A stretch of 64,000 bases of DNA from contig DATEOC010000017.1 in NCBI GenBank assembly GCA_035274425.1, positions 5,456 through 69,455 of the forward strand. The letters are read 5' to 3'. The position numbers and the translations under genes are program-made. Origin of the DNA: Chloroflexia bacterium. GTDB lineage: Bacteria > Chloroflexota > Chloroflexia > QHBQ01 > JADMIH01. Below are positions 1 through 33,374 of this stretch, piece after piece. The notes beneath the pieces were generated by a model, which was given only the letters and a program-made list of their open reading frames with translations, ran no database searches and was not told the DNA's origin. Each line of letters begins with the position of its first letter. The stretch's first letter is position 1.

Positions 1-10
1 TGAGATTCCC

Positions 11-3001
11 GTGCTGGGCGACGACGGCGCGAACGGCGGCGTACGCACCACTCGCGGCGGCGTCATAATCCAGCCCAACGACTTCAACCCTGAGCGCATC
101 ATTCTCAACGACGTTATCCTGACGACCCCCGCGGTCAATGTGGGCGACCACTTCAGCGGCCCCGCCGTAGGGGTAATGAACTATGACTTTGGCAACTTCA
201 AGCTTGAAATCACCCAGGCGCTGAGTGGGGTTTCGAGCGGCCTCACACGGGAAGTCGCCGCGACCCCTGGCCCCAACCAAATCGTGATAGGCAACTTCAA
301 CGTCGAAAACCTCGATCCGAACGACCCGCCATCCCAGTTCAGCAACCTGGCGGGCCTGATCGTCAACAACATGAAGTCGCCCGACATCATCTCCATCGAG
401 GAGATACAGGACAACGACGGTACTGTTGGCGGCACGGGCAGCACGGTGGTTGATGCATCAACGACCTGGAACATGCTGATCTCCGCCATCCAGAGCGCGG
501 GTGGACCTACATACCAGTTCCGCAACGTCAACCCGGTGGACGACCAGGATGGTGGCGAGCCGGGTGGAAATATCCGCCAGGGCTTCCTCTTCCGCACCGA
601 CAGGGGAGTGGCGTTCATTGACCGCCCAGGCGGCTGCTCGACCTGCGCCAATAGCGTAGTGAGCGGGCCGGGCGGGCCGGAGCTTGCCTTCAGCCCTGGC
701 CGCGTTGATCCTACCAACACCGCCTTCAATGCGAGCCGCAAGCCGCTGGCAGGTGAGTTCACCTACAACGGCCACAAGCTCTTCATCATCGGCAACCACC
801 TCAACTCGAAGGGTGGCGACCACCCGCTCTTCGGGCGCTTCCAGCCGCCGGTCCGCTCGTCTGAAGTGCAGCGCAACCAGCAGGCCCAGATCATCAACAA
901 CTTCGTCGATAGCATCCTGGCCGTGAATGCCAATGCGAACGTAGTCGTGCTTGGCGACATGAACGACTTCTACTTCTCAGCGACGATAAACATAATCGAG
1001 GGAGACACGCCCTCGGGTAGCCCAAGCAGCCCACTCGGTGGAGGCGTGCTCCAGAATCTCATGGAGACGCTTGCCCTGCCTGAGAGGTACAGCTATGTCT
1101 TCGACGGCAACTCGCAGGACCTCGATAACACACTCGTGAGTAGCAATCTTCTCGCTGCCCTGGCCGAGTTCGATCCGCTACACGTCAACTCTGAGTTCGC
1201 GAACCAGGACAGTGACCACGATCCACAGGTTTCGCGTTACACTCTTGTAGGCGCCACGCCAACACCCACAGGCACCAGCCTTCCCGCAACTTCCACGAAC
1301 ACAGCAGTACCATCAACAGCTACCAATACGGCCGTGGCTGCTAGCGCTACTTCTACAAATACGGCAGTAGCACCTAGCGCTACCACTACCCGTACCAGCA
1401 CTGCCACCAACACGGCAGTGCCAGCCACCGGCACCAATACAGCAGTAGTACCTAGCGCTACCACTACTCGTACCAGCACTGCTACCAACACGGTGATAGC
1501 AGCCAGCGCTACAGCGACAGTCTGCACGTCCAGTGGGCCGGTAACGTTCACAGGCTCTATAGATGGGAGTGAGCCTACGCACAACAGCGTGCTCGGCGCT
1601 ACTTCCTCCTGTGGCTCTACCACTCCTTGCCCCGGGCAACTAACGGGTACGTTCCACTATGATACATACACTCTGGTGAACAATACAGGCGCACCCGTGT
1701 GTGTCACCGTCACCTTGAGCGACTCTGCCTGCGTCTACTCCGAGGTATACTCGGCTGTACCTACCCCCGGCAATTCCTGCACCTCATACGTGGCAGACAG
1801 CAACCTGGGGTCTAGCTACCAACTGACAATCCCCGCGAACACTACCTACTACCTGGTGGTCGAGGAGTTCACGGAGAACGCAGGTTGTCCATCGTACACA
1901 GCCACGGTAACAGGTCTACCTGGCGGTGCTTGTGTAACCGCTACACCTACCGGTACGGCAGTAGCAGCCAGCGCGACTGCAACGCGTACCAACACGGCAG
2001 TGGCTGCCAGCGCTACTTCTACAAATACCACTGTAGCGGCCAGTGCAACTACAACGCGTACCAACACGCCAGTGGTTGCAAGTGCTACCTCTACAAATAC
2101 GGTCGCCGTACCTTCTGTTACCAGCACTGCGATAGCACCCACAGCTACCACAATAATCTCTACCAATACCGTAGTGCCAGCGACAGCGACCAATACCATC
2201 GTACCTCCCAGCATTACGCCTGTGCCTCCTACCGTCACCACTATACCTTCTTCTACAGCAGTGCCTACTTCTACCACCGCAGCTACTTCAGTGCCTCCTA
2301 CATCTACAGCTACCACTCCGCCGACTGCTACAACAGTGCCGAGCAGCACACCAACTGCTTGTGTGATGCCGTTCACAGACGTTGACCAGTACAATCCGTT
2401 CTACGTCTACATCAAGTGCCTCTACTGTAGGGGGGTCATCTCTGGGTATGGCGATGGCACATTCCGTCCATATGCTGAAATCACCAGGGGGCAGATGTCT
2501 AAGGTCGTGTCCAATTCTGCGGGCTTCAATGAGCCAGTGAGCGGGCAGGTTTACACAGACGTGCCACCCGCGCACCCCTTCTATATGTGGATCATGCGGC
2601 TGAGCAACCGCGGGATAGCTACCGGCTACAACACAGCTGGTCAGTGTCCTACGGGAGTGCCATGCTTCAGGCCGGAGAACAGTCTGACGAGAGGGCAGAT
2701 GGCAAAGATAGACTCTAACGCTGCCGGCTTCTCAGATACCCCGCCCGCAGGCACTCTCACCTTCGCGGATGTGCCTCCTTCTAACCCGTTCTATATATGG
2801 ATCGAGCGTCTGTCGAGGAGAGGTATCATCAATGGCTACGATTGTGGTGTGAACCCGATGGAGCCGTGCGACGGCCAGAACAGGCCATACTACCGGCCAT
2901 ACACGGACATCACGAGAGGGCAGGCAGCGAAGATAGTGTCGAACACCTTCTTCCCTGTAGACTGCACCCCCGGCATACCCCCTATCCTCCCAGGGAGGTA
3001 A
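11..3001 (+). CDS. Partial (5' end off-window) extracellular nuclease of the endonuclease/exonuclease/phosphatase (EEP; ExeM/NucH-like) family, with Thr/Ala-rich tandem-repeat linkers and three C-terminal SLH (S-layer homology) repeats
   Basis: No start codon; the ORF opens at the window edge. EEP-like blocks are present (IVIGNFNVENL, NVVVLGDMND, C-terminal SDHDP). Two long Thr/Ala/Ser-rich repeat tracts lie at nt ~1237-1520 and ~1930-2350. The C-terminus has three repeats matching the SLH pattern F.DV....F..I..L..RGI..GY...TFRP...ITRGQ.AKIV. Confidence 0.6.
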   Translation: MLGDDGANGGVRTTRGGVIIQPNDFNPERIILNDVILTTPAVNVGDHFSGPAVGVMNYDFGNFKLEITQALSGVSSGLTREVAATPGPNQIVIGNFNVENLDPNDPPSQFSNLAGLIVNNMKSPDIISIEEIQDNDGTVGGTGSTVVDASTTWNMLISAIQSAGGPTYQFRNVNPVDDQDGGEPGGNIRQGFLFRTDRGVAFIDRPGGCSTCANSVVSGPGGPELAFSPGRVDPTNTAFNASRKPLAGEFTYNGHKLFIIGNHLNSKGGDHPLFGRFQPPVRSSEVQRNQQAQIINNFVDSILAVNANANVVVLGDMNDFYFSATINIIEGDTPSGSPSSPLGGGVLQNLMETLALPERYSYVFDGNSQDLDNTLVSSNLLAALAEFDPLHVNSEFANQDSDHDPQVSRYTLVGATPTPTGTSLPATSTNTAVPSTATNTAVAASATSTNTAVAPSATTTRTSTATNTAVPATGTNTAVVPSATTTRTSTATNTVIAASATATVCTSSGPVTFTGSIDGSEPTHNSVLGATSSCGSTTPCPGQLTGTFHYDTYTLVNNTGAPVCVTVTLSDSACVYSEVYSAVPTPGNSCTSYVADSNLGSSYQLTIPANTTYYLVVEEFTENAGCPSYTATVTGLPGGACVTATPTGTAVAASATATRTNTAVAASATSTNTTVAASATTTRTNTPVVASATSTNTVAVPSVTSTAIAPTATTIISTNTVVPATATNTIVPPSITPVPPTVTTIPSSTAVPTSTTAATSVPPTSTATTPPTATTVPSSTPTACVMPFTDVDQYNPFYVYIKCLYCRGVISGYGDGTFRPYAEITRGQMSKVVSNSAGFNEPVSGQVYTDVPPAHPFYMWIMRLSNRGIATGYNTAGQCPTGVPCFRPENSLTRGQMAKIDSNAAGFSDTPPAGTLTFADVPPSNPFYIWIERLSRRGIINGYDCGVNPMEPCDGQNRPYYRPYTDITRGQAAKIVSNTFFPVDCTPGIPPILPGR

Positions 3002-3151
3002 GGGGGTGGGGCCAGGCAGTAGCTGCCGGACGCCCTCTGAGCAGTAACCTATCGCTACAGCACGAAGGTTCGGTCTTCCTTTCACTTGAGCATTACACGC
3101 TGAGTGAGAGGAGGGCCGGACCTTCGGCCTCAGTGTAAGGAGAAACGTAAG

Positions 3152-6100
3152 ATGGCTGTTGTGTCGAAAACGCGGTTCTCTCGCCCCTTGAGCGTAGTTA
3201 CAGGGGCTATGGTTGCATTGGCCCTGGTCCTGGCGGGGAGCTCGCCTGCCGGCAGGGTTACGGGCGCGAGCGCTGCTCTGCCTGTGGGAGAGTGGAGCGC
3301 CCAAAGTCCGCACTCGACTACTGTGGTGATCAGCGAGTTTCGCACTCGTGGTCCGGCGGGTGCCAGCGATGAGTTCGTTGAGCTGTTCAACCTTTCCGCG
3401 AGTCCGGTTGACATAAGCGGGTGGCTGATCAGAGGCTCGAACGGTGGTGGCGCTGTCAGCACGCGCGTGACAATATCAAGTTCGACCATTCTACAGCCAG
3501 GCCAGCACTACCTCGCCGTCAACGCGGCGTACACAGGCTCCGTCGCTGGCGACCCCCCAAGCTACAGCACCGGTATCACCGACGATGGCGGTATAGCTAT
3601 ATTCAACGGTGCTACGATTATCGACCAGGTTGGAATGAGTACAGGCTCTGCTTATCTTGAAGGCACAGTTTTGCCTCCATTCGGCAGTGCTAATACGGAC
3701 CGTAGCTACCGTCGCATCAACGAATGCGTAGATAGCGACGATAACGTCACAGACTTTGGCAACCAGACCGTGTCGCCCAGCACACCGCAGAATAGAGCCT
3801 CCGCGCTAACTCCCTGCGGTGCCGCGACTGCCACGGCTACCAGTAACATCACAAACACTCCAGCGCTCTTTACCCCTACATCAACAAACACAACATTTCC
3901 GGCCAGCGCAACGAATACAACCGTGCCTCCTACAGCTAGCAATACATCTACGTCGGGACCAACCAACACTCCTGGGGCCGGAGGTGGTGGGCTGATTATC
4001 AGCCAGGTGTACGGCGGCGGTGGCAATTCAGGCGCGCCCTGGCGGAATGACTTTATCGAGATTTTCAATCGTGGAAGCAGCACTGTTACGGTCAACAACT
4101 GGTCGGTGCAATACACATCCACAAATGGCAATACATGGCAGCAGACTGCGTTCTCGGCCACAATCCCGCCTGGCAGCTATTACCTGATCCAGGAGGTATC
4201 GGGCGGTGCCAATGGGAATCCCCTGCCAACCCCCGACGCCACCGGCACAATAGCGATGTCGGCCACTGCCGGTAAGATCGCTCTCGTGAATTCGATTACG
4301 CTGCTGACCGGGACGTGCCCACTGGGTGCGAACGTTGTGGACTTCGTTGGCTATGGAACAGGCACTAACTGCTTCGAGGGGGGCGGTGTTGCGCCTACGA
4401 TAAGCAACACGACTTCGGATATTCGCAACGGCGCTGGCTGTGTGGACACCGATAATAACAATTCCGATTTCATGGTCACGTCGGCTATTGTCCCTCGAAA
4501 CAGCGCATCGGATACCAACGATTGTGGCGACGGCACCCCTTCACCTACCCCCAGCCCCGGCCCAAGCAATACACCTGGGCCTACCAACACTCCCATCCCG
4601 CAGTCGAATGTGCTCCTTTACATGCTCTATTATAAGACTTATGCGACAGGGCAGAGCGACGAGGCCGTACGCCTCATCAATATGGGAGCGAGTCCCGCCC
4701 CCGTAGGCTCGTGGAGCATCGTAGGCGCGACGGGCGCGATAACGCTGCCAGTAGGAGCGAGCATCCCCGGCAACAGCAAAATATGGGTAGCGAATAACGC
4801 CGTCAGCTTCCGTATCCTCTTTGGCTTCTCGCCCAATTTTGAGTACGGGACCGACAGCGACCCTGGCGTGCCCCAGGCATCAGCTTCAGCGGGCTTCAAC
4901 TTCCCGGATGCGGGTGATGCTCTCCGCCTGCGTAATGACACTGCCGGGAACGTGGATACCCTTGTTTACAAGAACGGCAGCACTGGCACTACCGGGTGGG
5001 TAGGCACCTCTGTGCAGCCGTACCTCCCGACAGGGCAACCTAGCTTCAAAGAGGATGGGCAGATACTCTATCGTAAGCTTGACGAGGTCACGGGCAGGCC
5101 TTTCCTCGACACCAATACGAACGATGACTGGGCGCAGGACAACGACCCCACCGGCTCAGGCACGCCTACGCCGGGTGGGCGTGAGTATGACGACATCAAC
5201 GGCAAGAAGACCCTCCGCCCAGGCTGGCCCATCACTGACCCCTCGCTCGAAGACATGTTTTTCACCAAAACGTACACCGAGACCAACGTCACCACCAAGT
5301 TCCTGGTAGCCCCGGACAACACCTACGACGCGGTGGTTGGTCTGATACGGTCCGCTCAGACATCTTTGACGATAGAAACGTATGAATGGCATAATGCGCC
5401 GCTCGTCACGGAGATCATCGACGCCAAGAACAGGGGTATAAGCATCACTATCGCCATCGAAGGGAACCCGTGTTGCTTCAGCCCTCCCAGGCCGGACGAC
5501 GACACCCTTTGGGCCGCGCAGCAGTGGGAGGCGGCTGGTATCCCCGTCTATTTCTTCAGTGGCTACCCGGGTACGATAGACGACCAGTACAGGTATAACA
5601 ACGTCCACGCCAAAATCATGATAGTCGATAACGCCTGGGTGCTGACGGGCAGCGAGAACTTCGCCCTATCGGGCATGCCCAACGACCCTAAAGGGAACGG
5701 GACCGCAGGCAATCGCGGCTCGATGATAATAACAAACGCTCCCAATGTAGTCGCCTACACGCGCCGGATGGTGGACACCGACTTCGCACTCGGCAGGTAC
5801 GCCGACCTGGTGCGATACCCCGGCCTGGGCACGCCCCCTCCCGACTATACACCGACGCCCTTCCCCGACCAGACTGGCTATACCGTGCTGAAGCCAACGC
5901 CCCTCGTAGTCACAGAGACCCAGCGCATAGAGATTGTGCAGGCCCCCGATAATGCGCTCAGGGACGTTGATAGCCTCCTCGGACTCGTCAATCGCGCGGG
6001 TGCGGGCGACGAGGTAATGGTTGAGCAACAATATGAGCGCAAGTACTGGCAGTCCAGCACTCTCGATGGTCCGAACCCGCGTCTTGAGGCGTACATACGC

Positions 6101-8044
6101 GCCGCTCAGCGTGGCGCGACCGTCCGCATCCTGCTCGATGCGGCGTTCGACGACTGCGGCAGCACGCATAACTCAGCTACCGTGCAGTACCTCAGCAGCT
6201 TCGGCCTGGCAAATCTCCAGGGGAGGATCGGCCAGCCTAGTAACGGCCCCATACACAACAAGGAAGTTTTAGTGCGCATCGGGTCGCAGGGGTACATCCA
6301 CTCCTCCAGTATCAATGGCTCGGCCAACAGCTCCAAGAACAATCGGGAGTACGGCTTACAGATAGCGTCGAACGCCGGCTACCAATATTACAAGGAAGTG
6401 TTCGATTATGACTGGAGCGTAGGGTACGTAGGCACCTGCTTCGCCACGCCCACACCTACGGTCACGGGCACCACGACACCGCCTACGGCCACCCCTACCA
6501 TTCCACCCCTCCCCTGCAACGCCCTCGCCAACCCCGGCTTCGAGACGGGCAACCTTTCTCCCTGGGTCACAACCACGCCTGGAGTTACCGCTGCTGTGGA
6601 TAGCTCAAATCCTCATTCTGGCATCTACTCTGTGGCTGTGACCCATTCGTTTACCGCGACCTCCGGCGGCTCACAGGGTATCTACCAGGACATTCCGGGC
6701 ACCGTCGTCGCGGCACAGACCTACCAGGTGCAGGGATACGTCTATAGGCCGGACAACAACATCCAGTCGGCGCGGGTGCGGGTCGCCTGGTATAACTGCG
6801 CCGACTTCAGTTGCGGGCAGGCGAGCACCAGTGACGTATTCGCGGGGGACAGGGGAGTCGCCGGGTGGCAGTTCTTTAGCGGTGGAGTGACACCACCTGC
6901 CGGGGCCATCGCCGCGCGCTACCGCCTGATCTTCTACAACGAAAACGCCACAGCCTCGACAATACGCTTCGATGACGTCGCGTTTGAATGCTTCATACAA
7001 GGTACGGCTACCACCGTACCGTCCTTTACACCCACTCCGGTTGTGAACCCGTCTATGACTGCCACAGCTACTGTGGTTGTGGGCGGGTCTGCGACTGCCA
7101 CAGTTACCGCGGTCGTGGGTGCATCATCGACCGCTACGGTCACTGCGACTGTGAGTGGGTCTATGACCCCTACCGCTACTTCGGTTGTGAGTGGGTCTGC
7201 GACTGCCACAATCACTGCGATTGCAAGTGGGTCTATGACCGCAACTGCTACTGTGGTTGTGAGCGGGTCTAGCACCGCCACACGAACGCCTACCCAACAA
7301 CAGGCGACAGGCACCTCTACTTCACTTGTGGTAACTGCGACCAGCACAGCGATCGTACTTACCACGCCGACCCCGTGTTCTCTACAATTCACCGACGTGC
7401 CCGCGAACAATACCTTCTACACGCAGGTGCGATGCCTGACGTGCAGGGGTATAATGTCCGGTTACGCCTGCGGCGGGGAGGGGGAGCCGTGCGACGAAGA
7501 CAGTAACCCGTACTTCCGTCCCAACGTTGACATTACGAGGGGGCAGATAGCCAAGATCGTCTCGAACTCTGCTGGCTTCAACGAGGAAGCCGGAGAGCAG
7601 ATTTACGAAGACGTGCCGCCCGCAAGCACATTCTACGCCTGGATAAATCGCCTCAGCATGAGAGGGCACATGGGTGGCTACCCGTGCGGCACCGACCCGA
7701 ACGAGCCGTGCGAGCCTCCCAATAATCGCCCGTACTTCCGCCCCAACTCCAACGCCACACGCGGGCAGTTATCGAAGATAGTCTCCAATGCGGCGGGCTA
7801 CGGGGACACTCCTCCCGGCCAAATCTTCGAGGACGTGCCGGATACCAACATATTCTACCTGTGGATACAGCGCCTGGCCTCCAGGGGGATCATGGGAGGC
7901 TACCCCTGCGGCGGAGAGGGAGAGCCATGCGTAGTGCCGGACAACAGACCGTACTTCCGCTGGGGCGCACGCGTCACGCGAGGCCAGGCCTCTAAGATAG
8001 TCGCAAACACCTTCTTCCCGAACTGCCAGACTCCGAGCCGGTAG
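3152..8044 (+). CDS. Large secreted, SLH-anchored multidomain protein: signal peptide, 2x lamin-tail domain (LTD), phospholipase-D/Nuc-like domain with HKD motifs, CBM4/9/22-like carbohydrate-binding module, Thr-rich repeat linker, 3x SLH repeats
   Basis: AAGGAG lies 9 nt upstream of the ATG at 3152; the ORF track starts 16 codons earlier at 3104. LTD signatures: VVISEFRTRGPAGASDEFVELFN and LIISQVYGGGGNSGAPWRNDFIEIFNRG. PLD HxKxxxxD..GSxN motif: HAKIMIVDNAWVLTGSENF. A second, degenerate motif is IHNKEVLVRIGSQGYIHSSSINGSANSS. CBM-like NPGFETGNLSPW. A (T/A/V/G/S) tandem repeat lies at nt ~7020-7330. C-terminal SLH-like repeats (FTDVPANNTFYTQVRCL...ITRGQIAKIV). Confidence 0.75.
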   Translation: MAVVSKTRFSRPLSVVTGAMVALALVLAGSSPAGRVTGASAALPVGEWSAQSPHSTTVVISEFRTRGPAGASDEFVELFNLSASPVDISGWLIRGSNGGGAVSTRVTISSSTILQPGQHYLAVNAAYTGSVAGDPPSYSTGITDDGGIAIFNGATIIDQVGMSTGSAYLEGTVLPPFGSANTDRSYRRINECVDSDDNVTDFGNQTVSPSTPQNRASALTPCGAATATATSNITNTPALFTPTSTNTTFPASATNTTVPPTASNTSTSGPTNTPGAGGGGLIISQVYGGGGNSGAPWRNDFIEIFNRGSSTVTVNNWSVQYTSTNGNTWQQTAFSATIPPGSYYLIQEVSGGANGNPLPTPDATGTIAMSATAGKIALVNSITLLTGTCPLGANVVDFVGYGTGTNCFEGGGVAPTISNTTSDIRNGAGCVDTDNNNSDFMVTSAIVPRNSASDTNDCGDGTPSPTPSPGPSNTPGPTNTPIPQSNVLLYMLYYKTYATGQSDEAVRLINMGASPAPVGSWSIVGATGAITLPVGASIPGNSKIWVANNAVSFRILFGFSPNFEYGTDSDPGVPQASASAGFNFPDAGDALRLRNDTAGNVDTLVYKNGSTGTTGWVGTSVQPYLPTGQPSFKEDGQILYRKLDEVTGRPFLDTNTNDDWAQDNDPTGSGTPTPGGREYDDINGKKTLRPGWPITDPSLEDMFFTKTYTETNVTTKFLVAPDNTYDAVVGLIRSAQTSLTIETYEWHNAPLVTEIIDAKNRGISITIAIEGNPCCFSPPRPDDDTLWAAQQWEAAGIPVYFFSGYPGTIDDQYRYNNVHAKIMIVDNAWVLTGSENFALSGMPNDPKGNGTAGNRGSMIITNAPNVVAYTRRMVDTDFALGRYADLVRYPGLGTPPPDYTPTPFPDQTGYTVLKPTPLVVTETQRIEIVQAPDNALRDVDSLLGLVNRAGAGDEVMVEQQYERKYWQSSTLDGPNPRLEAYIRAAQRGATVRILLDAAFDDCGSTHNSATVQYLSSFGLANLQGRIGQPSNGPIHNKEVLVRIGSQGYIHSSSINGSANSSKNNREYGLQIASNAGYQYYKEVFDYDWSVGYVGTCFATPTPTVTGTTTPPTATPTIPPLPCNALANPGFETGNLSPWVTTTPGVTAAVDSSNPHSGIYSVAVTHSFTATSGGSQGIYQDIPGTVVAAQTYQVQGYVYRPDNNIQSARVRVAWYNCADFSCGQASTSDVFAGDRGVAGWQFFSGGVTPPAGAIAARYRLIFYNENATASTIRFDDVAFECFIQGTATTVPSFTPTPVVNPSMTATATVVVGGSATATVTAVVGASSTATVTATVSGSMTPTATSVVSGSATATITAIASGSMTATATVVVSGSSTATRTPTQQQATGTSTSLVVTATSTAIVLTTPTPCSLQFTDVPANNTFYTQVRCLTCRGIMSGYACGGEGEPCDEDSNPYFRPNVDITRGQIAKIVSNSAGFNEEAGEQIYEDVPPASTFYAWINRLSMRGHMGGYPCGTDPNEPCEPPNNRPYFRPNSNATRGQLSKIVSNAAGYGDTPPGQIFEDVPDTNIFYLWIQRLASRGIMGGYPCGGEGEPCVVPDNRPYFRWGARVTRGQASKIVANTFFPNCQTPSR

Positions 8045-8200
8045 CCGACGGACGACGGACGACGGACGACGGACGAGGGTCTAAACGCAGAGACGCAAAG
8101 ACGCAGAGGACGCACAGAGATTATTAAGAATATGTATTAACCAATAATAATCTCTGTGTTACCTTTGTGCTCTCTGTGTCTCTGCGTGTAATCGGTCATC
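8045..8200. repeat. Intergenic heptamer tandem repeats (ACGACGG x4.5, then degenerate GACGCAG/AGACGCA units) followed by a long imperfect palindrome (~45-bp arms centred ~8150)
   Basis: Direct reading: ccgacggacgacggacgacggacgacggacga, then ...acgcagagacgcaaagacgcagaggacgcacagagattattaag / cttaataataatctctgtgttacctttgtgctctctgtgtctctgcgt. Confidence 0.8.
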
Positions 8201-8205
8201 TGTCG

Positions 8206-9468
8206 TCACCGATACGTTCTCCCTTTCCAGCGGACGCCTTTGCCTGAGAGGACGCGGTACATGGAGAAGAGGAGCATGGCGTTGCCTACAGCTACGCCGA
8301 GGGGATAGGTGAGGGCGTAACGAGGGGGCACCCCCATCTGGCGGCATACGGCCAGGCGAACGGCCAGCATGGGGAGCATCTGCATGGCCCCATGCGCTAA
8401 AATGGTCTCACGACTAGTTGATCGTTTTGCCAGCGAGATAGCGATTACGAGAGGTGGCGTGAGCGCGTACAGGCTGAGGGCTGCTATTACACCTAGCGCC
8501 CTGAGCGTGTTGTGCCCGCTGGCCCAGAAGAGGGTCTTGGCATAGCCGTTCCACATATCCCGCAAAGATGAGTAGACGCGGGCGCTGGCAAGGTTGCGGC
8601 CATATTCGAGCCGGACATTATAGCCTCTCTCCTTCAGAGCCTGGGCGAGCGCGCGGTCCTCGGCTACGTCGCCTCTCACCTCCTCGCTGGCACCTAATGC
8701 GCCGAAGAGTTGCCGCCTGACCAACATACATTGCCCGTTCGCGGCAGCGCCTTTGCGCCCACGCTCATTCACCTGGTCCATCGTGCCCACCAGCAGCGTG
8801 TAAAGCTCCCCGACCTGGGGCACCAATACGCGCTCCCAGAAGGACTCCATCTGGACATTGATCACAAGGCTGAGGAGGTCGGCACTAGTGCATAACGTGC
8901 CATGCACTACGGAAGGAAGCATCAAGGGCGAGTGTCGCGTGTCGGCATCCACGAAGAGGAGCCAGTCTACTTCGTCGGGAGTTGCGAGATAACCGGCGTA
9001 CATCGCATTGGCCTTCCCAGTCCAGCCGTTTGGGAGCGGTGGCGCTGCTATGACGCTCAACTCATGGCGCTGGGAATCCATCTCGCTTGCTATCTTCTTA
9101 GTCGCATCTGTAGATGCGTCGTCAACCAGAAGGACGCCCCATCTGCCGCGCGGGTAATGCTGGGCGAGTAGGGAAGATAGCAGGGGAGCGACATTATCCT
9201 CTTCATTTCTTGCGGGGGCGATGATCTGCACGAAAGGTGCGTCTTTGCCTTCCGGCCATTCATACTGCGTAAGGTTGCGGTTCCTGCGCCGGTTCATTGC
9301 GAGACCGGTAGCGACCGCGATTGTTATAATGTTGGTGATGATAGTCCTCAGCCAATTGAAATCGACCCGTGCAAGTTTCATACGAGCAGTGTAATGGCGC
9401 ATCACATCATGCGCAAGGAGACCGATGCCTCCAATTGACAAAGCCGAGCGCCGCGAGATCAAGCGCAA
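8206..9468 (-). CDS. Membrane glycosyltransferase, GT2 family
   Basis: GT2 signature LLVDDASTDAT and a DxD-type motif (FVDADT). Hydrophobic N- and C-terminal segments. Confidence 0.7.
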   Translation of the reverse strand: MRLISRRSALSIGGIGLLAHDVMRHYTARMKLARVDFNWLRTIITNIITIAVATGLAMNRRRNRNLTQYEWPEGKDAPFVQIIAPARNEEDNVAPLLSSLLAQHYPRGRWGVLLVDDASTDATKKIASEMDSQRHELSVIAAPPLPNGWTGKANAMYAGYLATPDEVDWLLFVDADTRHSPLMLPSVVHGTLCTSADLLSLVINVQMESFWERVLVPQVGELYTLLVGTMDQVNERGRKGAAANGQCMLVRRQLFGALGASEEVRGDVAEDRALAQALKERGYNVRLEYGRNLASARVYSSLRDMWNGYAKTLFWASGHNTLRALGVIAALSLYALTPPLVIAISLAKRSTSRETILAHGAMQMLPMLAVRLAVCRQMGVPPRYALTYPLGVAVGNAMLLFSMYRVLSGKGVRWKGRTYR

Positions 9469-9604
9469 AAAGCTACGTGACGCTAAATTCCAGAATGTCC
9501 GCTATCGCACCCTGCGGGCTGGAGAGTCTCTGGTCGCCTTCGAGACGGAGCGCAAGACTACCATAGAGGGCAAGCCCATTAAACCTCGCAAGCGTCGTAA
9601 GTAG
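9425..9604 (+). CDS. Small (59 aa) Lys/Arg-rich hypothetical protein, absent from the ORF track because it is <60 aa
   Basis: My own translation: MPPIDKAERREIKRKKLRDAKFQNVRYRTLRAGESLVAFETERKTTIEGKPIKPRKRRK*. It is highly basic and overlaps the 5' end of the antisense GT2 gene by ~44 nt. Confidence 0.25.
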   Translation: MPPIDKAERREIKRKKLRDAKFQNVRYRTLRAGESLVAFETERKTTIEGKPIKPRKRRK

Positions 9605-9680
9605 AGTGCAATAGACATAGTTACCCATTGCATTAACCGAACATCTGTGCTATAGTTTTATCATCTGAGACTTCTTAGAA

Positions 9681-10493
9681 ATGGGGTACACTATGAGCAG
9701 CGCAGATGATTTTTCGGCAGATCAGGAGCTGGTCCCACAGGATGGGGCAACGCTTGCGCTCCAGGGCGAGAAGCAGCGTCTCTTTGTGCAGACGCTCGAT
9801 GAGGCACAGGTCGATTTCCTTTTGCAGCGCACTCCCAGGCAAGAGATAAAGATGCGCCAGGGGCGGGGCGGTTTGCAGTTTGCCTACGTCGAGCACGGCT
9901 ATGTAACCGAGCGCCTCAACATGGTCTTCGGCTTCAACTGGGACTTCGAAATTATTGACAAGCAAATCCTGGAAGACGAAGTTATAGTCGAAGCTAAGTT
10001 GACGGTGCGCACGCCGAAGGGGCAGACTATCGTCAAGACCCAGTTCGGGGGAGCGGATATCAAGCGCCACGCCTCCGGCCCCAAAATGGGTCGCCCCCTT
10101 TCGATAGCGGACGACTACAAGGCGGCGGGTAGCGACGCCTTGAAGAAGTGCGCCTCGCTCCTGGGCATCGGTCTGGACCTTTACGGGCGTGACCGCATAG
10201 ATGAGGACTCTCCCAAGCCCGCCGAACAACCCACTCCTGTACACGTTCCTGAACCACTCAAGCGTGATGCCGCCAATATTACGCCTCTCAACGCGCCCGC
10301 AGCCGGGTCGAGCACCTCTTCTCAGATACAGGAGATAGGCAGGCTGGCGCGACAGTGCGGCATGCCCATTTCCGAGCTATGCGCAACCCTCGGTGTATCC
10401 GACCTCTCCGAGCTTACCGAGGCGCGCTCAGAGAGGGTAATCAAGCGGCTTCGCCAGCGCGCTTCCGAAGCATCCTCTGGGCGAGCGGGGTAG
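9681..10493 (+). CDS. Rad52/Rad22-family single-strand annealing protein homolog (orphan recombinase)
   Basis: The segment GRGGLQFAYVEHGYVTERLNMVFGFNWDFEIID matches the conserved Rad52/22 core (..y..g..V...LN..FGFNGWS.ei..). The acidic, low-complexity C-terminal tail is typical of SSAPs. Confidence 0.55.
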   Translation: MGYTMSSADDFSADQELVPQDGATLALQGEKQRLFVQTLDEAQVDFLLQRTPRQEIKMRQGRGGLQFAYVEHGYVTERLNMVFGFNWDFEIIDKQILEDEVIVEAKLTVRTPKGQTIVKTQFGGADIKRHASGPKMGRPLSIADDYKAAGSDALKKCASLLGIGLDLYGRDRIDEDSPKPAEQPTPVHVPEPLKRDAANITPLNAPAAGSSTSSQIQEIGRLARQCGMPISELCATLGVSDLSELTEARSERVIKRLRQRASEASSGRAG

Positions 10494-10508
10494 AGGGGCG
10501 CTTCGCTT

Positions 10509-10799
10509 GACGACGGACGACGGACGACGGACGATAGATGATGGGTTGGAAAATAGTCAATTCCGGTGTAGAAATGTACTCTCAGAACCTAACCTGACAT
10601 AGAGATTCGTTAACATGTCAGGTTAGGTTTGGGCCACCTGATCGCCATCCAGTAAGCCTATTGCCGCTTAGAAGCAAAAAAGCGTACCGCTCATCTTAAG
10701 AAGGTCTATGTACGCTTCGCTTTTGGAGCGCTTGGTAATCACCCTCTATCGTCTATCATCTATCATTTATCGTCCGTCGTCCGTCGTCCGTCGTCCGTC
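10509..10799. repeat. MITE-like intergenic structure: GACGACG/GATAGAT heptamer array (10509-10544) and its reverse complement (10746-10799) flanking a perfect 15-bp stem hairpin (aacctaacctgacat...atgtcaggttaggtt, ~10596-10640)
   Basis: Direct reading: gacgacggacgacggacgacggacgatagatgat vs ...atcatctatcatttatcgtccgtcgtccgtcgtccgtcgtccgtc. Confidence 0.75.
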
Positions 10800-10982
10800 A
10801 GTAGGGATTGACACTGCCATCCAAATACAGTATCATAGCGTGTGCGTGCTTATCTAGCGTGCCGTGCTATTGTCTCTGGGCGCACCAGGGCAAACGGCGT
10901 CGGGGTAAACCCGAACCAACCTGCCAACATGCCATCCTTCGAGCCAGAGGTGGCTCGTCCTGGGCGAAGAAAGGGGTTTTGA

Positions 10983-13517
10983 ATGCCGCGACGTCACATG
11001 CTCAAGCCGAACTTACAGACAGTTCTTTTGGGGATCACGCTATTGCTGGTCTCAGGTAGTCTTGCGTCTCTACAGACCGCACAGGCCGGTCCTAATAATG
11101 CGCTTCCTCCCGCGGCCTTCAGCCCTAATGGCCTGGTCATAAACGAGATATATGATAGCACTACGGGCACCAACGAGTACTTCGAGCTTTTCAACAACAG
11201 CTCGGTTGCTATCGACCTCTCTACTTATCGTATTTATAACCGCGACGACTCCATACCGTTGTCAAATCTTGCCAATCCCACAATCACCGCCGGGCAGTAT
11301 CGCGCAATAGGCTCCGCACAGCTTGGTGACTGGTTCACCGGCTCGACGGGTCTGGACCGCAATGGAGACTTCCTGGGGCTGGTAAACACCAATCCAACCG
11401 ATACCATCATAGATGTAGTCAACTTCGGCAGCTCTCCCAATCCCAACTGGCCCAATTATGAGCGGTTCCAGGACCACTTTTTTACTTCCAACATACCTCA
11501 GCTTCCGCCCTTTGACGGCACACGCGCACTCCAACGATGGCCTGACGGTCAGGACAGTGATCAGGGGAGCGATTTCGATTCCATACCTAGTTCGCCAAGT
11601 TCAGCCTCGTGCGGTGACCCATATGAGGACGATAACGCACCAACGTCGACTACAACGCATCCAATCGGAACCACCAGGTTGCACCGCTTGTGTCCCGCAG
11701 GTGATCAGGACTGGATCCCCCTCCAGCTGAACAGTTCCAGCACCTATACCCTGCGCGCTACTGCCCAGGGGTCGACCGTCGATACTGTGATGAGGCTGTA
11801 TGAGTCCACTAATCTTATTGTAGAGGATAACAACCCTAACACGCGCGACAGTGTAATCAACTTCAGGCCAACGACCAGCGGCCTCTTCCGTGTTCAGATA
11901 ACGGACGCGAACGGCCAGGGTGGATCGGGACCAAACTTCCTCTACAATTTCCGAGCCGATTCTACTCTGGTCCCTACGTCTACACCCACGGTATTCGCCA
12001 GCGCGACTGCTGTCACGGTCACACCTACGCCCATTCCGTGTGCGGACGCTTACGAGCCTGATGACAGCCGCGACAATCCCAGGGACATCGCGCTCTTCGC
12101 CCCTCAGCGCCATTCACTCTGCCCGGCAGGTGATCAGGACTGGGTGCAATTCCAGGCAGGTGGTGATAAGGTCTATTCACTCTTTACCTCCGCCCTGACC
12201 GGGCCTGTGGATACGGTCATTACTCTGTATGACTCGGGAGGCCGGTTCCTCGCTGAAAACGACGATGCTCAGCCCGGACAGGGTCTCGCATCTCGTCTAG
12301 ATTACACATTCTATGGTAGCGGCAACGCTCTCTATTTTCTACGCGTGCGGGAAAGGACCGGCAGCGGCGGCGTTGGCTATGAATACACTCTCAACTTCCA
12401 GTCGCAGGGTGGCCTCCCACCGACCTCTACCACAACCCCTACACCCACTTTCAACCCCAATAGCCCCACGCCGACATCAGGGCCGTGCGGTGACTCTTAT
12501 GAGACCGATGGCCTGCCATCCGAGGCGAAAGATATACTTATCGGCACCACACAGCGCCATAGCATCTGCCCGGCGTCTGACGCCGACTGGGTGAAGTTCT
12601 ATGCGCGCTCCGGTAAGGTGTATACCATTCGCACCGCCAACCTGGGACCGGGCCTCGATACCTATATGTACCTCTTCGACACCAATGGCACCACCGTACT
12701 CGCCCAGAACGACGATGGAGGTGACGGGATCGCATCGCGCCTGGACTTCTACCCGCTACGTGACGACTTCTATTACGTACAGGTGAAGAACGCAGGCGAT
12801 ATAGGCGGCTCGCTGCAAACTTACGACCTGGTACTGGCAGTAGCGCCTGGTGTTCCGCAGCCGCCTGGCACGGCCACCGCAGGACCTCCGCCTCCATCTG
12901 GTAACACGCCAACCACGGTGGTGCAACCGACCCGCCCGCCTGCACCTTCGCCCACAGCCGGGAGCATACCGCCGACGCCACCTGCACAGCAGACGGTAGC
13001 CGTGCCTCCGCAGCCCGTTTCCACTTCCCAGCCGGGTGGTGGAGGGTTACCGCCGCCCCAGCCAACAGGGCAGCTCCCGCCTGCGCCGACGCTACCTGTT
13101 CCGTCTGAGCCGGAGTCGACGATGATTCCCAACATACCTCGCACGGGCCACCCGGCCGAGGTACCTGCTAAGCCTATAATTGTTCTGCCTGAGAAACCTG
13201 CCCTTCCGGGGAGCAGCGTCGATTACCTGCCCGTATCGTTCAGGCTCTTTTATGATCGCAATCACAATAACCTGTTCAATGCAGGGGAGGGCATCAGGGG
13301 TGTAAGTGTCTACTTCATGCAGGGGAAGGGTAACAGCACTGCGATGGGGAGCCTGACCACCTCTCACGAGGGATTTGGCGTCTCCCGACTGCTCAAGGAT
13401 AATTACAGAGTTGTCATCCCCTACTTTGGATTGGATATGCCGCTCAAGGACTTCCCTGGGCGCGATATGCACAGTATATGGCTGCCATCCTTGACCTTAC
13501 CGGACCGCGTGCCCTAA
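10983..13517 (+). CDS. Secreted protein with N-terminal signal peptide, one lamin-tail domain, three pre-peptidase C-terminal (PPC) domains, and a long Pro-rich region
   Basis: The signal peptide MLKPNLQTVLLGITLLLVSGSLASLQTAQA suggests an alternative start at 10998. LTD signature: LVINEIYDSTTGTNEYFELFNNSSVAIDLSTYRIY. Three repeats each contain C.D.YE.D......I.....H..CPAGDQDW..F.......Y.......DTV..LY.S.......NDD......S.L, matching the PPC (PF04151) pattern. A Pro/Thr-rich tract follows at nt ~12840-13200. Confidence 0.65.
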   Translation: MPRRHMLKPNLQTVLLGITLLLVSGSLASLQTAQAGPNNALPPAAFSPNGLVINEIYDSTTGTNEYFELFNNSSVAIDLSTYRIYNRDDSIPLSNLANPTITAGQYRAIGSAQLGDWFTGSTGLDRNGDFLGLVNTNPTDTIIDVVNFGSSPNPNWPNYERFQDHFFTSNIPQLPPFDGTRALQRWPDGQDSDQGSDFDSIPSSPSSASCGDPYEDDNAPTSTTTHPIGTTRLHRLCPAGDQDWIPLQLNSSSTYTLRATAQGSTVDTVMRLYESTNLIVEDNNPNTRDSVINFRPTTSGLFRVQITDANGQGGSGPNFLYNFRADSTLVPTSTPTVFASATAVTVTPTPIPCADAYEPDDSRDNPRDIALFAPQRHSLCPAGDQDWVQFQAGGDKVYSLFTSALTGPVDTVITLYDSGGRFLAENDDAQPGQGLASRLDYTFYGSGNALYFLRVRERTGSGGVGYEYTLNFQSQGGLPPTSTTTPTPTFNPNSPTPTSGPCGDSYETDGLPSEAKDILIGTTQRHSICPASDADWVKFYARSGKVYTIRTANLGPGLDTYMYLFDTNGTTVLAQNDDGGDGIASRLDFYPLRDDFYYVQVKNAGDIGGSLQTYDLVLAVAPGVPQPPGTATAGPPPPSGNTPTTVVQPTRPPAPSPTAGSIPPTPPAQQTVAVPPQPVSTSQPGGGGLPPPQPTGQLPPAPTLPVPSEPESTMIPNIPRTGHPAEVPAKPIIVLPEKPALPGSSVDYLPVSFRLFYDRNHNNLFNAGEGIRGVSVYFMQGKGNSTAMGSLTTSHEGFGVSRLLKDNYRVVIPYFGLDMPLKDFPGRDMHSIWLPSLTLPDRVP

Positions 13518-13602
13518 GATAGAGGAGTGGGCGGTCTAGCGGGACCGCCCAACCGCCGGACAGGGGCGCAAAGCCTGATTCACATAGCTGAGGCAAGACC
13601 GA

Positions 13603-14619: not shown

Positions 14620-14668
14620 CGCAATCTGGGATTTTTACTCTCAGAGTTCGGATATAGCCGCCAATCCT

Positions 14669-15451
14669 GTGCCAGAAGCTTCCGGCCCGCGCCTCTCACC
14701 CGGAGAGGCGGTCATGTTTTTGGGCGACCAAACCTCCCCTGATGATCCCGGATTCGTTCGCGTCATCTCCGATGTGCTGAGTCGCTTTCACCCACAGTTG
14801 CGACTAAACCTTATCAGCGCGGGCGCGCCTGGGCAGACTGCCGGGGGGTTGAAGTCCCGCACTTTGCTGGACCTGCTCTCCTCGTCGCGCCCTGATTGGC
14901 TGGTCATCAACCTGGCGCTGGCTGACGCGACCCGCGAGCCTCCCCTGGTGGGTTTGCTCCACCAGTACAGGGCGCGCATGGCTACGCTGGAGAGTGACTT
15001 CGATGAGACCCTGGGGCCGTTACACAGGATAGGCGAAGACGCCTTCGGTACTCGCGCAGACAGTGGCAAGCTGCCGGAGATTGAGTGGCATCGCTTGCCC
15101 GTATTTCGATCCGCCCTGGGAGAGGCCATTGGGGAGCTTAGAAGCGCCGGTGTGCGGTCTGTTTTGATGACACCTGTGGCGGTAAGCCACGACCTGAACC
15201 ACCCGCTCAATCTTGCGCTACGCGCTTACAGCCGCGCAATACGTGAGGTTGCCGGTGTTGAGGCTGCGCCCCTGGTCGACGTGGACCGTGCCTTCCGTGC
15301 CGTGCTGGAGCGCGCCACCAACTATAAGCAGAAGGTGTCACTTGCGGACGAATCAGGAGTGGCAAACCCACAAGGAGTTGCGCTCATCGCCCGCACCTTC
15401 CTAAATGCCTTTGGCCTCTTGCCTCAGCCAGGCTTCAGGCCGCTACGCTAA
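14669..15451 (+). CDS. Putative SGNH/GDSL-family hydrolase
   Basis: A GDS-like block VMFLGDQTS lies near the N-terminus, with a DxxH-like SHDLNHP near the C-terminus. Weak, motif-level evidence only. Confidence 0.4.
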   Translation: MPEASGPRLSPGEAVMFLGDQTSPDDPGFVRVISDVLSRFHPQLRLNLISAGAPGQTAGGLKSRTLLDLLSSSRPDWLVINLALADATREPPLVGLLHQYRARMATLESDFDETLGPLHRIGEDAFGTRADSGKLPEIEWHRLPVFRSALGEAIGELRSAGVRSVLMTPVAVSHDLNHPLNLALRAYSRAIREVAGVEAAPLVDVDRAFRAVLERATNYKQKVSLADESGVANPQGVALIARTFLNAFGLLPQPGFRPLR

Positions 15452-15476
15452 AGTATGCGAAGTGGTCAGACAATAT

Positions 15477-15530: not shown

Positions 15531-15555
15531 TATTCAATGCTCCTGGCTGCCAGGC

Positions 15556-19824: not shown

Positions 19825-21540
<1,716 letters not shown>

Positions 21541-33353: not shown

Positions 33354-33374
33354 ATATTTATTCATGACATTTAC

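Follow-up and report, generated by a model that had tools for sequence, protein, structure and literature searches.

Organization of the Locus

The window, a stretch of 64,000 nucleotides from an uncultured soil Chloroflexia bacterium, contains three large open reading frames, ORF1, ORF2, and ORF3, which are present where the sequence-only reading had placed them, each with a putative Sec-type signal peptide readable at the N-terminus of its full-length product, that of ORF1 lying outside the window (Table 1). ORF1 and ORF2 are adjacent and co-oriented, and both encode giant proteins predicted to be wall-tethered phosphodiesterases. ORF2, the PLD gene, lies 150 bp 3' of the nuclease gene ORF1 on the same strand, as it does in the related locus L006, and no terminator-like site was found in the gap between them in either the window or L006. 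However, the three genes do not form the single contiguous cluster that had been described, since a GT2 glycosyltransferase gene and a Rad52/22-family gene intervene between ORF2 and ORF3. In the immediate neighbourhood of ORF1 and ORF2, no nucleotidase, phosphatase, or nucleoside transporter gene was seen. A Pfam scan upheld the LTD (lamin tail domain), PLD, CBM_4_9, PPC, SLH, and EEP domain calls, some of them with the corrections described below.

Table 1. Features of the locus, in coordinates of the window.
Feature	Position	Strand	Evidence or remarks
ORF1, C-terminal 999 aa of a 2,683-aa SLH-anchored protein, predicted secreted nuclease	2-3001	+	Full gene L001:405-8456
ORF1 nuclease module (end of OB region and EEP catalytic domain)	2-1225	+	PF19580 (Exo_endo_phos_3) 37.6 bits, GA 27; PF03372
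ORF1 EEP motifs	FNVEN 296-313; NHLNSK 794-811; GDMNDF 953-970; SDHDP 1211-1225	+	
ORF1 Thr/Pro-rich linkers around Cys-rich beta module of ~130 aa (1520-1933)	1226-2371	+	Composition scan, direct reading
ORF1 3x SLH	2372-2944	+	Starts 2372, 2552, 2762; PF00395 69-72 bits, 3 stretches
ORF2, 1,630 aa: signal peptide, LTD1, Thr linker, LTD2, LTD3, (HKD)2 PLD core, CBM_4_9, linker, 3x SLH	3152-8044	+	
ORF2 putative Sec-type signal peptide	3152-3274	+	MAVVSKTRFSRPLSVVTGAMVALALVLAGSSPAGRVTGASA/A; direct reading
ORF2 LTD1	3308-3634	+	PF00932 51.2 bits
ORF2 LTD2	3980-4354	+	PF00932 51.1 bits
ORF2 LTD3, directly before the PLD core	4610-4972	+	LTD conserved family-wide
ORF2 LTD-to-PLD connector	4973-5338	+	Invariant DT(N/D)TxxDWAQD at 5108-5140; invariant columns of alignment A1
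ORF2 PLD-superfamily core, two PLDc_2	5339-6415	+	HKD1 5606-5629 (H819, K821); HKD2 6254-6274 (H1035, K1037)
ORF2 CBM_4_9-type carbohydrate-binding module	6518-6982	+	PF02018 38.9 bits; NF033675 29.5 bits, sub-threshold
ORF2 Thr/Ser/Val-rich linker	6983-7387	+	Composition scan, direct reading
ORF2 3x SLH, Cys/Pro-rich insert in each	7388-8008	+	Starts 7388, 7604, 7826; PF00395 38.8 bits
GT2 glycosyltransferase, HpnB/CruG-like	8206-9468	-	PF00535 65 bits; TIGR03469 213 bits, under its cut-off of 379
Rad52/22-family gene	9681-10493		Between ORF2 and ORF3
ORF3, 844 aa	10983-13517	+	Signal peptide 10983-11087; LTD 11121-11426
ORF3 three PPC-type repeats	Starts 11610, 12039, 12486	+	
ORF3 Pro-rich linker	12849-13220	+	Invariant PxTG 13134-13148
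ORF3 small C-terminal beta domain	13221-13487	+	

ORF1, a Predicted SpnA/ExeM-Type Nuclease

The upstream part of ORF1, which lies beyond the window, was sought and recovered together with its signal peptide from the metagenome contig L001, base 5456 of which is base 1 of the window. The full protein comprises, in this order, a signal peptide, two modules of ~500 aa, a Calx-beta domain, a Thr linker, a weak LTD, the OB and EEP regions, linkers, a Cys-rich module, and three SLH repeats. The two N-terminal modules are paralogous to each other (35% identity, E 7.5e-54) and are suspected to adopt a parallel beta-helix; they have no sequence match in the PDB, and the only Pfam match in this region is Calx-beta. 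The Cys-rich module likewise has no Pfam match.

ORF1 matches the cell-wall nuclease A of Streptococcus pyogenes, SpnA (PDB 9sf8), with 312 bits (E 8e-92) and is colinear with it across 583 aa, and the SpnA catalytic motifs NVEN, NHLNSK, GDxNDF, and SDHDP are all intact. The ExeM_NucH model NF033681 scores 128-134 bits on the full protein, under its cut-off of 300, with model positions 2-509 of 546 covered, and 82.7 bits on the part within the window. Moreover, the ExeM/NucH order of signal peptide, LTD, OB-like region, and EEP domain is present, with the LTD under threshold. The SpnA match and the intact motifs sustain the earlier proposal of an ExeM/NucH-type extracellular EEP nuclease, and ORF1 is recognizable, from its sequence, as an extracellular DNase of the ExeM/NucH/SpnA type. 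The LTD that had been ascribed to it exists in the full gene, although it scores only 21.2 bits, under threshold, and is located outside the window.

SpnA (PDB 9sf8/9sf9; PMC13601614) and ORF1 thus share colinear OB and EEP regions with conserved motifs, and both are retained on a Gram-positive-type wall, covalently or non-covalently. However, SpnA has ~900 aa and is anchored by LPXTG and sortase, whereas ORF1, with its 2,683 aa, is anchored by SLH repeats, lacks an LPXTG/TM tail at the C-terminus, and adds the two N-terminal modules, Calx-beta, the weak LTD, and the Cys-rich module. ExeM from Shewanella, NucH from Aeromonas, and Xds from Vibrio (NF033681; PMC6085458) have their domain order in common with ORF1, but they are anchored through GlyGly-CTERM and rhombosortase, and the score of ORF1 is far under the 300-bit cut-off.

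ORF2 and the LTD-(HKD)2 Family

ORF2 starts at an ATG preceded by AGGAG, and an independent gene call also gives a product of 1,630 aa, which is identical to a protein (P0129) that NCBI nr already lists under the label "lamin tail domain-containing protein". Two LTDs had been counted in ORF2, but there are three, and the third is the one present throughout the family. The HKD fold is corroborated: PLDc_2 is over the Pfam gathering score, the core has a PLD fold, and two H-x-K motifs can be read directly, H819/K821 within "HAKIMIVDNAWVLTGSEN" and H1035/K1037 within "HNKEVLV...SSINGSANS", making ORF2 a catalytically plausible enzyme of the PLD superfamily. The second motif lacks the Asp, and His and Lys are kept in both halves. 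The triple SLH repeats and Thr-rich linkers reported for ORF1 and ORF2 were likewise recovered, with PF00395 matches and three readable repeats in each protein and linkers delimited by composition scan; the two SLH modules share 51% identity.

The ORF2 core is 38-62% identical to 38 homologues in alignment A1, which contains 64 invariant columns, and 39 homologues show no variation at either H-x-K pair or at the S/N residues that follow. ORF2 displays the features that define the family, namely a colinear LTD, the DTxTxxDWAQD connector, and two HKD domains with the invariant residues. The family occurs mostly in Chloroflexota, with 414 species genomes or loci in a genome scan that used the connector motif as the family pattern and 1,146 representatives at 50% identity (E<=1e-30). 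Its core consists of LTD and PLD only, behind signal-peptide-like N-termini that the LTD follows directly; CBM_4_9 is conserved in the Chloroflexia branch and absent in most members, and in most of the giant members the only fusion partners are Ig-like or adhesin repeats. The architecture of ORF2 is uncharacterized, as had been supposed, but not unique, since LTD-PLD-CBM_4_9-SLH recurs in several Chloroflexia MAGs and the exact sequence is in NCBI nr. Database labels on members read "cardiolipin synthase" (JGI, many homologues) or "lamin tail domain protein". A literature search returned no paper linking LTD with PLD enzymes and none on PLD-type extracellular nucleases in Chloroflexi, and the family is uncharacterized, with no biochemical data on any member in the literature searched.

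Gene neighbourhoods of 80 genome loci contain no recurring nucleotidase, transporter, or lipid genes. The sole recurrent neighbours, nrdR (21 loci), class II RNR (14 loci), and ftsZ/ftsA/ftsQ, are convergent with and downstream of the PLD gene in Anaerolineae-type genomes and are read as lineage synteny rather than as an operon. Upstream neighbours in Chloroflexia loci (Na/Ca exchanger, oxidoreductases, and similar) are uninformative.

ORF3 and the Question of a Three-Protein System

In ORF3, the LTD scores 38.6 bits, and the three PPC repeats that had been proposed are paralogous (29-42% identity, E 1e-19 to 1e-29), although only the third passes the Pfam cut-off (PF04151, 13.5, 15, and 35 bits; GA 25.9). 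The best fold match of the repeats in the predicted structure is the collagen-binding domain tandem of ColG (5iku, E 1e-11), with the acidic residues conserved. However, ORF3, unlike ColG/ColH, lacks a peptidase domain, and its repeats are accompanied by an LTD, a Pro-rich linker, and a small beta domain at the C-terminus. A fold search with the predicted structure recognized beta domains of the binding type only, and no concealed enzyme came to light.

The three proteins had been taken together as a single LTD-based surface system that captures and degrades DNA or polymers. All of them carry a signal peptide and an LTD (sub-threshold in ORF1), and the three genes are found within ~20 kb in each related Chloroflexia genome examined. 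Nevertheless, such a system seems very unlikely, as ORF3 has neither SLH repeats nor a catalytic domain, has its own promoter-like site, and keeps as conserved co-directional partners, in more distant relatives, a membrane protein and a GDSL esterase. Moreover, ~9 kb of housekeeping genes (permease, proline dehydrogenase, and others) separate ORF3 from the giant SLH protein in L086-L088, and L011 keeps PLD, GT2, and Rad52 with no ORF3 nearby. ORF3 would instead be a separate, non-catalytic binding protein.

The Substrate of ORF2

In a search of the PDB with the family profile, the best matches are two nucleases, Nuc (4.6e-9) and NucT (1.2e-8), followed by Zucchini, with a Streptomyces PLD behind (4.5e-5); the Nuc and NucT matches are weak (36-38 bits) and cover only one HKD domain. 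A single-sequence search with the PLD core, less informative than the profile, gave Nuc as its sole match (E 0.0025). The NCBIfam NucT models score 18 bits on ORF2, against cut-offs of 211-351, and its best NCBIfam match is DISARM DrmC. By fold comparison, lipase and nuclease are not separable, and the PLD fold assigns no substrate, since the PLD of Serratia plymuthica (7e0m), as close in structure as PLD3/PLD4 and vaccinia F13, is a phospholipase.

Two proteins, L008 (2,240 aa) and P0322 (2,322 aa), the latter found by an exhaustive representative search with a Pfam scan, join LTD-PLD-CBM_4_9 in a single reading frame to an OB and EEP nuclease of the ExeM/SpnA type and to SLH; they are only 47.6% identical, yet colinear across 1,720 aa. 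A third such fusion (P0121) is partial. The arrangement is rare, with 2-3 cases among several hundred family members, and a search of a word-indexed database with the L008 protein returned no further sequence spanning both the PLD and EEP modules. About 12 clusters of the Caldilineaceae type (P0155-P0166) carry the helix-hairpin-helix domain HHH_5 behind a Thr/Pro linker, at the site that CBM and SLH occupy in ORF2. DNA binding by this tail is not certain, because its scores are barely over threshold (27.5-32.7 bits, GA 27) and it is similar, too, to extensions found at the C-termini of ribosomal protein L21, NuoE, and phasin PhaH. The LTD, in turn, is an accessory domain of ExeM-type nucleases, and its deletion slows DNA degradation in vitro (PMC6085458). 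Because Nuc and NucT are the nearest solved sequences, fusions to ExeM/SpnA-type nucleases exist in at least two divergent lineages, and an HHH subfamily occurs, a nucleic-acid substrate is favoured, and ORF2, judged by these comparisons, probably acts on nucleic acid. The functional link between PLD core and nuclease that had been suggested is supported by the in-frame fusions in other Chloroflexia; that DNA is the substrate of ORF2 itself, we infer.

Other substrates have to be weighed against nucleic acid. ORF2 might be a surface phospholipase D or another lipid phosphodiesterase directed at foreign membranes or lipid debris, in predation or phosphorus scavenging, in which case its nearness to a nuclease would reflect a general neighbourhood of surface hydrolases rather than a shared substrate. 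We consider this unlikely, since the closest solved sequences are nucleases, the fusion partners include a DNase module and HhH but never lipases or lipid-binding modules, and tethering to its own wall by SLH would limit its reach to foreign membranes. Pointers to glycans rather than DNA are CBM_4_9, which is over threshold and conserved in the Chloroflexia branch, and the GT2 gene, which adjoins the PLD/SLH gene in at least eight loci (L006, L009, L010, L011, L014, and L086-L088) with 40-93% identity. ORF2 could then cleave phosphodiesters of glycopolymers (teichoic-acid-like polymers, phosphoglycan EPS, or its own secondary cell-wall polymer) in envelope or matrix remodelling, with the CBM binding the glycan and the GT2 building or modifying the same polymer. 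However, most of the family has no CBM, and the GT2 gene frequently has the reverse orientation and, in L086, adjoins an SLH giant with EEP and Kelch domains and no PLD. That neighbour suggests that the GT2 goes with SLH giants, for instance to glycosylate their linkers or to make the SCWP, and not with PLD chemistry. We know of no characterized glycopolymer phosphodiesterase of the PLD superfamily, and this function appears quite improbable for ORF2. Finally, a transferase of the cardiolipin or phospholipid synthase type, in line with the JGI labels on homologues, is scarcely conceivable and was rejected: the ClsB match is weak (17.9 bits, cut-off 281), there is no ClsA match, and the Sec signal, the wall-anchoring module, and the lack of N-terminal membrane helices place the catalytic domain outside the membrane. 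The HKD domain, whose possible grouping with cardiolipin synthases had been raised as a check, does not group with them; its best matches among solved sequences, weak ones, are Nuc and NucT.

A Putative Pair of Surface Nucleases

The preferred explanation, which we hold with moderate confidence, is that ORF1 and ORF2 form a pair of DNase and PLD-fold nuclease at the cell surface, with ORF3 standing apart. ORF1 would be a DNase of the SpnA/ExeM/NucH type that requires divalent cations, binds DNA through its OB-fold domains, and cleaves it with its EEP domain. In the core of ORF2, a single LTD packed against the two-HKD PLD-fold domain would constitute a metal-independent nuclease or nucleic-acid phosphodiesterase working through a covalent phospho-histidine, as in the PLD superfamily, while its extra LTDs, CBM_4_9, and SLH could serve as targeting and tethering modules. 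The C-terminal SLH repeats would hold both enzymes at the surface, and the long Thr-rich linkers would space them from the wall. We infer that the two enzymes cooperate: beside ORF1, ORF2 would degrade extracellular DNA or RNA at the surface of the cell, and the most plausible role is the scavenging of phosphorus, nitrogen, and nucleotides.

More broadly, LTD-(HKD)2 proteins might constitute a major unrecognized class of secreted, metal-independent PLD-fold nucleases, mostly from Chloroflexota of soil, sediment, and activated sludge, in which the obligatory LTD takes part in substrate handling, a proposal that falls just short of an even chance. Extracellular DNA is a large pool of phosphorus, nitrogen, and carbon in soils and sediments, where Chloroflexota are abundant, as they are in wastewater flocs. 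A published survey that looked for secreted nucleases in MAGs from activated sludge used a fixed list (endonuclease, SNase, NUC1, SNc, HNHc, and nucleotidases) from which PLD-type domains are absent (PMC11495043). If LTD-(HKD)2 proteins are nucleases, surveys of environmental DNA degraders missed them because only classical nuclease domains were searched and the labels read "cardiolipin synthase"; the known DNA-degrading potential would grow by no fewer than 414 species genomes and over 1,000 sequence clusters, and a widespread misannotation would be corrected. The bacterial LTD would also gain a second, independent enzymatic partner for the same substrate class, which would sharpen the long-standing question of its role. 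If ORF2 acted on phospholipids or on glycopolymer phosphodiesters instead, this would be an ordinary cluster of surface hydrolases.

Among known enzymes, Nuc (Salmonella plasmid pKM101, 1byr) and NucT (Helicobacter pylori, 6ehi) are homodimers of ~155-aa, single-HKD subunits, whereas ORF2 fuses two diverged HKD domains, the second without Asp, and has an insert specific to the family, DDKSDGTxGNRG, and an obligatory LTD. The lysosomal 5'-3' exonucleases PLD3 and PLD4 and vaccinia F13 are only 14-16% identical to ORF2; they are eukaryotic or viral, membrane-anchored, and without LTD. The C-terminal triple SLH after a long linker is shared by ORF1 and ORF2 with SLH-anchored, S-layer-associated enzymes of Gram-positive-type bacteria, but the repeats of ORF1 and ORF2, read directly, contain Cys/Pro-rich inserts and TRGQ in place of the classical TRAE.

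The Locus and Its Genes

The three large plus-strand ORFs described in the sequence-only reading were recovered within the first 13.5 kb of the window, in a region of 56–60% G+C, and this underlying observation is solid. An exact-sequence look-up of ORF2 led to a 13.5-kb metagenome contig, L001, which overlaps the window exactly (L001 base 5456 is window base 1) and supplies the upstream part of ORF1 that had been sought beyond the window. The nearest genome, L006, is an uncultured soil Chloroflexia MAG with full synteny and a PLD core that is 93% identical.

Coordinates of genes and features in the window and in homologous loci
Locus	Feature	Position	Strand	Remarks
Window	ORF1	2-3001	plus	truncated by window edge
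L001	paralogous ORF1 modules	645-4200		aa ~80-1270, outside window
Window	ORF2	3104/3152-8044	plus	start ATG 3152, Shine-Dalgarno sequence present
Window	GT2 glycosyltransferase	8206-9468	minus	HpnB/CruG-like, below both cut-offs
Window	Rad52/Rad22-family gene	9681-10493	plus	270 aa, no signal peptide; PF04098, 41 bits
L006	Rad52/Rad22-family gene	15281-16082		
L011	Rad52/Rad22-family gene	15281-15994		
L086	Rad52/Rad22-family gene	19153-20013		
L087	Rad52/Rad22-family gene	18733-19533		
L088	Rad52/Rad22-family gene	19020-19820		
L007	Na+/Ca2+ exchanger	7083-8336		
L008	Na+/Ca2+ exchanger	7650-8744		
L011	Na+/Ca2+ exchanger	5851-6930		
Window	ORF3	10983-13517	plus	
Window	(V/I)PxTG motif of ORF3	13134-13148		IPRTG, aa 718-722
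Window	single-pass membrane protein	13603-14619		338 aa, His/Asp-rich cytoplasmic head; co-directional with ORF3
Window	GDSL-family esterase	14669-15451		co-directional with ORF3
Window	ORF3 trio	10983-15451		
Window	lower-G+C stretch	~32000-48500		45-54% vs ~58-60% elsewhere in window
Window	Prim-Pol protein	36911-39724	minus	937 aa; within lower-G+C stretch
Window	N6/N4 DNA methylase fragment	42116-43378	minus	within lower-G+C stretch
Window	dnaE	44776-48480	minus	adjoins Prim-Pol/methylase genes
Window	three successive NRPS genes	49147-62963	plus	2,255, 1,158, 1,166 aa; C-A-T modules

ORF1, an SLH-Anchored Nuclease

Joined across L001 and the window, the full ORF1 protein has 2,683 aa and comprises a signal peptide, two ~500-aa modules and a Calx-beta domain, a Thr-rich linker, a lamin-tail domain (LTD), the nuclease module, and a C-terminal part in which a Cys-rich module flanked by Thr/Pro-rich linkers precedes three SLH repeats. 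Its description as an LTD protein holds in part, since the LTD is present in the full gene but below threshold (21.2 bits), while the proposed ExeM/NucH-type extracellular nuclease with triple SLH is supported by model coverage, alignment with SpnA, and conserved motifs. The nuclease module covers positions 2–509 of 546 of the ExeM/NucH model, with a score of only 128–134 bits against a cut-off of 300, and is colinear over 583 residues (312 bits, E 8e-92) with PDB 9sf8/9sf9, the metal- and phosphate-binding motifs being kept in this alignment. These structures are of SpnA, an LPXTG-anchored DNase of Streptococcus pyogenes (PMC13601614). Because of this coverage and of the colinear match with kept motifs, ORF1 is assigned to the SpnA/ExeM/NucH surface nucleases as a distant relative, anchored by SLH rather than by sortase or rhombosortase. 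It is a new representative of a known kind, and an unusually large one.

The two N-terminal modules, with the Calx-beta domain between them, are paralogous (35% identity, E 7.5e-54) and have no match in Pfam or among PDB sequences. A weak 'choice-of-anchor Q'-like motif lies at the end of each, and a parallel beta-helix is suspected.

ORF2 and the LTD–PLD Family

Pfam scans of the whole ORF2 protein and of its pieces gave a signal peptide, LTD1 (51 bits), a Thr linker, LTD2 (51 bits), LTD3 (24.9 bits), a conserved connector, two PLDc_2 halves (52.6 and 39.8 bits), CBM_4_9 (38.9 bits), a Thr/Ser/Val-rich linker, and three SLH repeats. The layout of LTD, HKD, CBM, and triple SLH proposed earlier was thereby confirmed, except that there are three LTDs instead of two; LTD3 is the one that matters, since the conserved core includes it. 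His and Lys are kept in both HKD halves (H819/K821 and H1035/K1037), and a confident AlphaFold2 model of LTD3 plus PLD (39 sequences; pLDDT 87.9, pTM 0.89) indicates that the LTD is packed rigidly against the catalytic domain.

The LTD–PLD core has hundreds of homologues (38–62% identity), almost all with the Pfam pair LTD and PLDc_2 and most of 620–850 aa, whose N-termini are signal-peptide-like and directly followed by the LTD. Screening one genome per species by pattern and tblastn placed the family in 414 genomes, nearly all from Chloroflexota (Chloroflexia, Anaerolineae, Ardenticatenaceae, Promineifilaceae, and Thermoflexales), and a profile search run exhaustively against 1.84 billion cluster representatives returned 1,146 at E ≤ 1e-30. 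Members are labeled in databases as 'cardiolipin synthase', 'PLD-like', or 'lamin tail domain-containing protein', the latter being the nr entry of ORF2 itself (P0129), and literature searches found no publication on LTD–PLD proteins. Although uncharacterised, the ORF2 architecture is not confined to this locus: the long form LTD(n)-PLD-CBM_4_9-SLH recurs in several Chloroflexia MAGs. ORF2 thus pairs a catalytic superfamily that is already known with an LTD, in a combination that is specific to its family, widespread and uncharacterised, and that is extended here for wall display.

Several features of other members stand apart. In the homologues P0141 and P0147, LTD–PLD is fused N-terminally to a universal stress protein (Usp) and DUF389 membrane domains, an odd combination of cytoplasmic/membrane domains with a secreted core. 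A short LTD-PLD(-LTD) gene is convergent with class II ribonucleotide reductase, nrdR, ftsZ, ftsA, ftsQ, ddl, and murB in 14–21 of 80 loci (L004, L005, L017, L047, L057, L060, and others), a synteny conserved across Anaerolineae/Ardenticatenaceae/Promineifilaceae-type genomes, and no functional link to these neighbours is evident in the 80 loci. A Na+/Ca2+ exchanger gene immediately precedes the PLD giant in three loci from Chloroflexia, which is probably local synteny.

Substrate of ORF2

Comparisons of the ORF2 sequence lean towards nucleases. The best solved matches of the family profile are Nuc (4.6e-9), NucT (1.2e-8), and Zucchini, with Streptomyces PLD behind, and the top NCBIfam match of ORF2 is DISARM DrmC (38.5 bits). 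A grouping of the HKD domain with cardiolipin synthases, which would speak against a nuclease, was not found, because the best matches are nuclease-like, ClsB reaches ~18 bits, as does NucT, and ClsA gave no match in the NCBIfam scan. Domain fusions provide the strongest evidence. The homologous locus L008 encodes, in a single in-frame ORF of 2,240 aa, LTDx2-PLD-CBM_4_9-(OB+EEP ExeM/SpnA-type nuclease)-SLH, with no SLH between the PLD and EEP enzymes, and the 2,322-aa protein P0322 has the same architecture. Since the two are only 47.6% identical, yet colinear over 1,720 residues, and P0121 adds a third, truncated case, the fusion is genuine and has been maintained within a sub-lineage. A Caldilineaceae-type subfamily (~12 clusters) carries a C-terminal Thr/Pro linker and an HHH_5 helix-hairpin-helix domain (27.5–32.7 bits against a GA of 27), which is lighter evidence because this tail is similar to C-terminal extensions of L21, NuoE, and PhaH too.

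In the window (ORF1–ORF2) and in L006, the PLD gene adjoins the nuclease gene on the same strand across a 150-bp gap with no terminator-like site, and the LTD is an accessory domain of ExeM-type nucleases (PMC6085458). Against a nucleic-acid substrate stand the CBM_4_9 of ORF2, the conserved GT2 gene next to the PLD giant, the absence of salvage genes near ORF2, and the rarity of nuclease fusion among giant members, which mostly carry Ig-like/adhesin repeats. Taking together the fusions, the adjacency to ORF1, and the role of the LTD in ExeM-type nucleases, the chance that ORF2 acts on nucleic acid is rated slightly better than even.

Proposed Function at the Cell Surface

ORF1 and ORF2 are both secreted, have intact active-site motifs, and carry a C-terminal triple SLH behind a long low-complexity linker. 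SLH modules provide a non-covalent hold on the secondary cell-wall polymer; SpnA/ExeM-type EEP nucleases require divalent cations and hold DNA by OB folds, and HKD enzymes are metal-free and operate via a phospho-histidine intermediate. In the proposed mechanism, ORF2 would cut nucleic acid, and both enzymes would attack the same DNA or RNA outside the cell, at its surface, one of them depending on metal and the other not. The extra LTDs and the CBM would place the ORF2 enzyme in the matrix, and the whole would serve nutrient scavenging or matrix turnover. This biology is not surprising, because a wide occurrence of cell-wall-bound nucleases in Chloroflexota had already been predicted (PMC11495043). 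What is new is the probable enzyme class of ORF2, and the one interesting claim is that LTD–PLD proteins may constitute a nuclease family.

ORF3 and Neighbouring Genes

ORF3 comprises a signal peptide, an LTD (38.6 bits), three PPC-type repeats, a ~120-aa Pro-rich linker, and a small C-terminal beta domain. The three repeats reported before are paralogous (mutual E 1e-19 to 1e-29), but only the third exceeds the Pfam threshold as PPC. The family is conserved full-length in Chloroflexia (at least 55 clusters), its predicted structure is a string of beta domains with the ColG tandem collagen-binding domain as best PDB match, and no enzyme-like part was found by structure model and fold search. 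ORF3 is treated as a non-catalytic binding protein apart from ORF1 and ORF2, because a promoter-like site of its own was identified (11 of 12 positions match the consensus), its two downstream genes, for the single-pass membrane protein and the GDSL esterase, are kept even where ORF3 is only ~47% identical, Rad52, GT2, and the SLH giant lie apart from it there, with an amino-acid permease, proline dehydrogenase, and further genes in between, and locus L011 keeps PLD, GT2, and Rad52 with ORF3 missing. The idea of a three-protein system found no support. ORF3 and its two downstream genes form a co-directional trio that L006 and L086–L088 share. A (V/I)PxTG motif, with Pro, Thr, and Gly invariant in 28 of 28 aligned members, sits within the otherwise hypervariable linker ~120 aa from the C-terminus; it resembles LPXTG but is not followed by a hydrophobic/basic tail.

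The GT2 gene, which may have a part in making the wall polymer or in glycosylating linkers, adjoins the PLD/SLH giant gene on either strand in at least eight related loci, and in L086 its neighbour is instead an SLH giant with EEP and Kelch domains. The Rad52/Rad22-family gene adjoins GT2 and giant SLH phosphodiesterase genes and, since it is kept in place at 60–85% identity across Chloroflexia genomes, looks like a stable chromosomal gene and not a prophage passenger; its place beside surface nucleases might conceivably bear on, for example, the processing of incoming DNA.

The remainder of the window has the appearance of an ordinary bacterial chromosome, with FTHFS, proline dehydrogenase, DnaE, a non-ribosomal peptide cluster formed by the NRPS genes, and one lower-G+C island that looks like an integrated mobile element.
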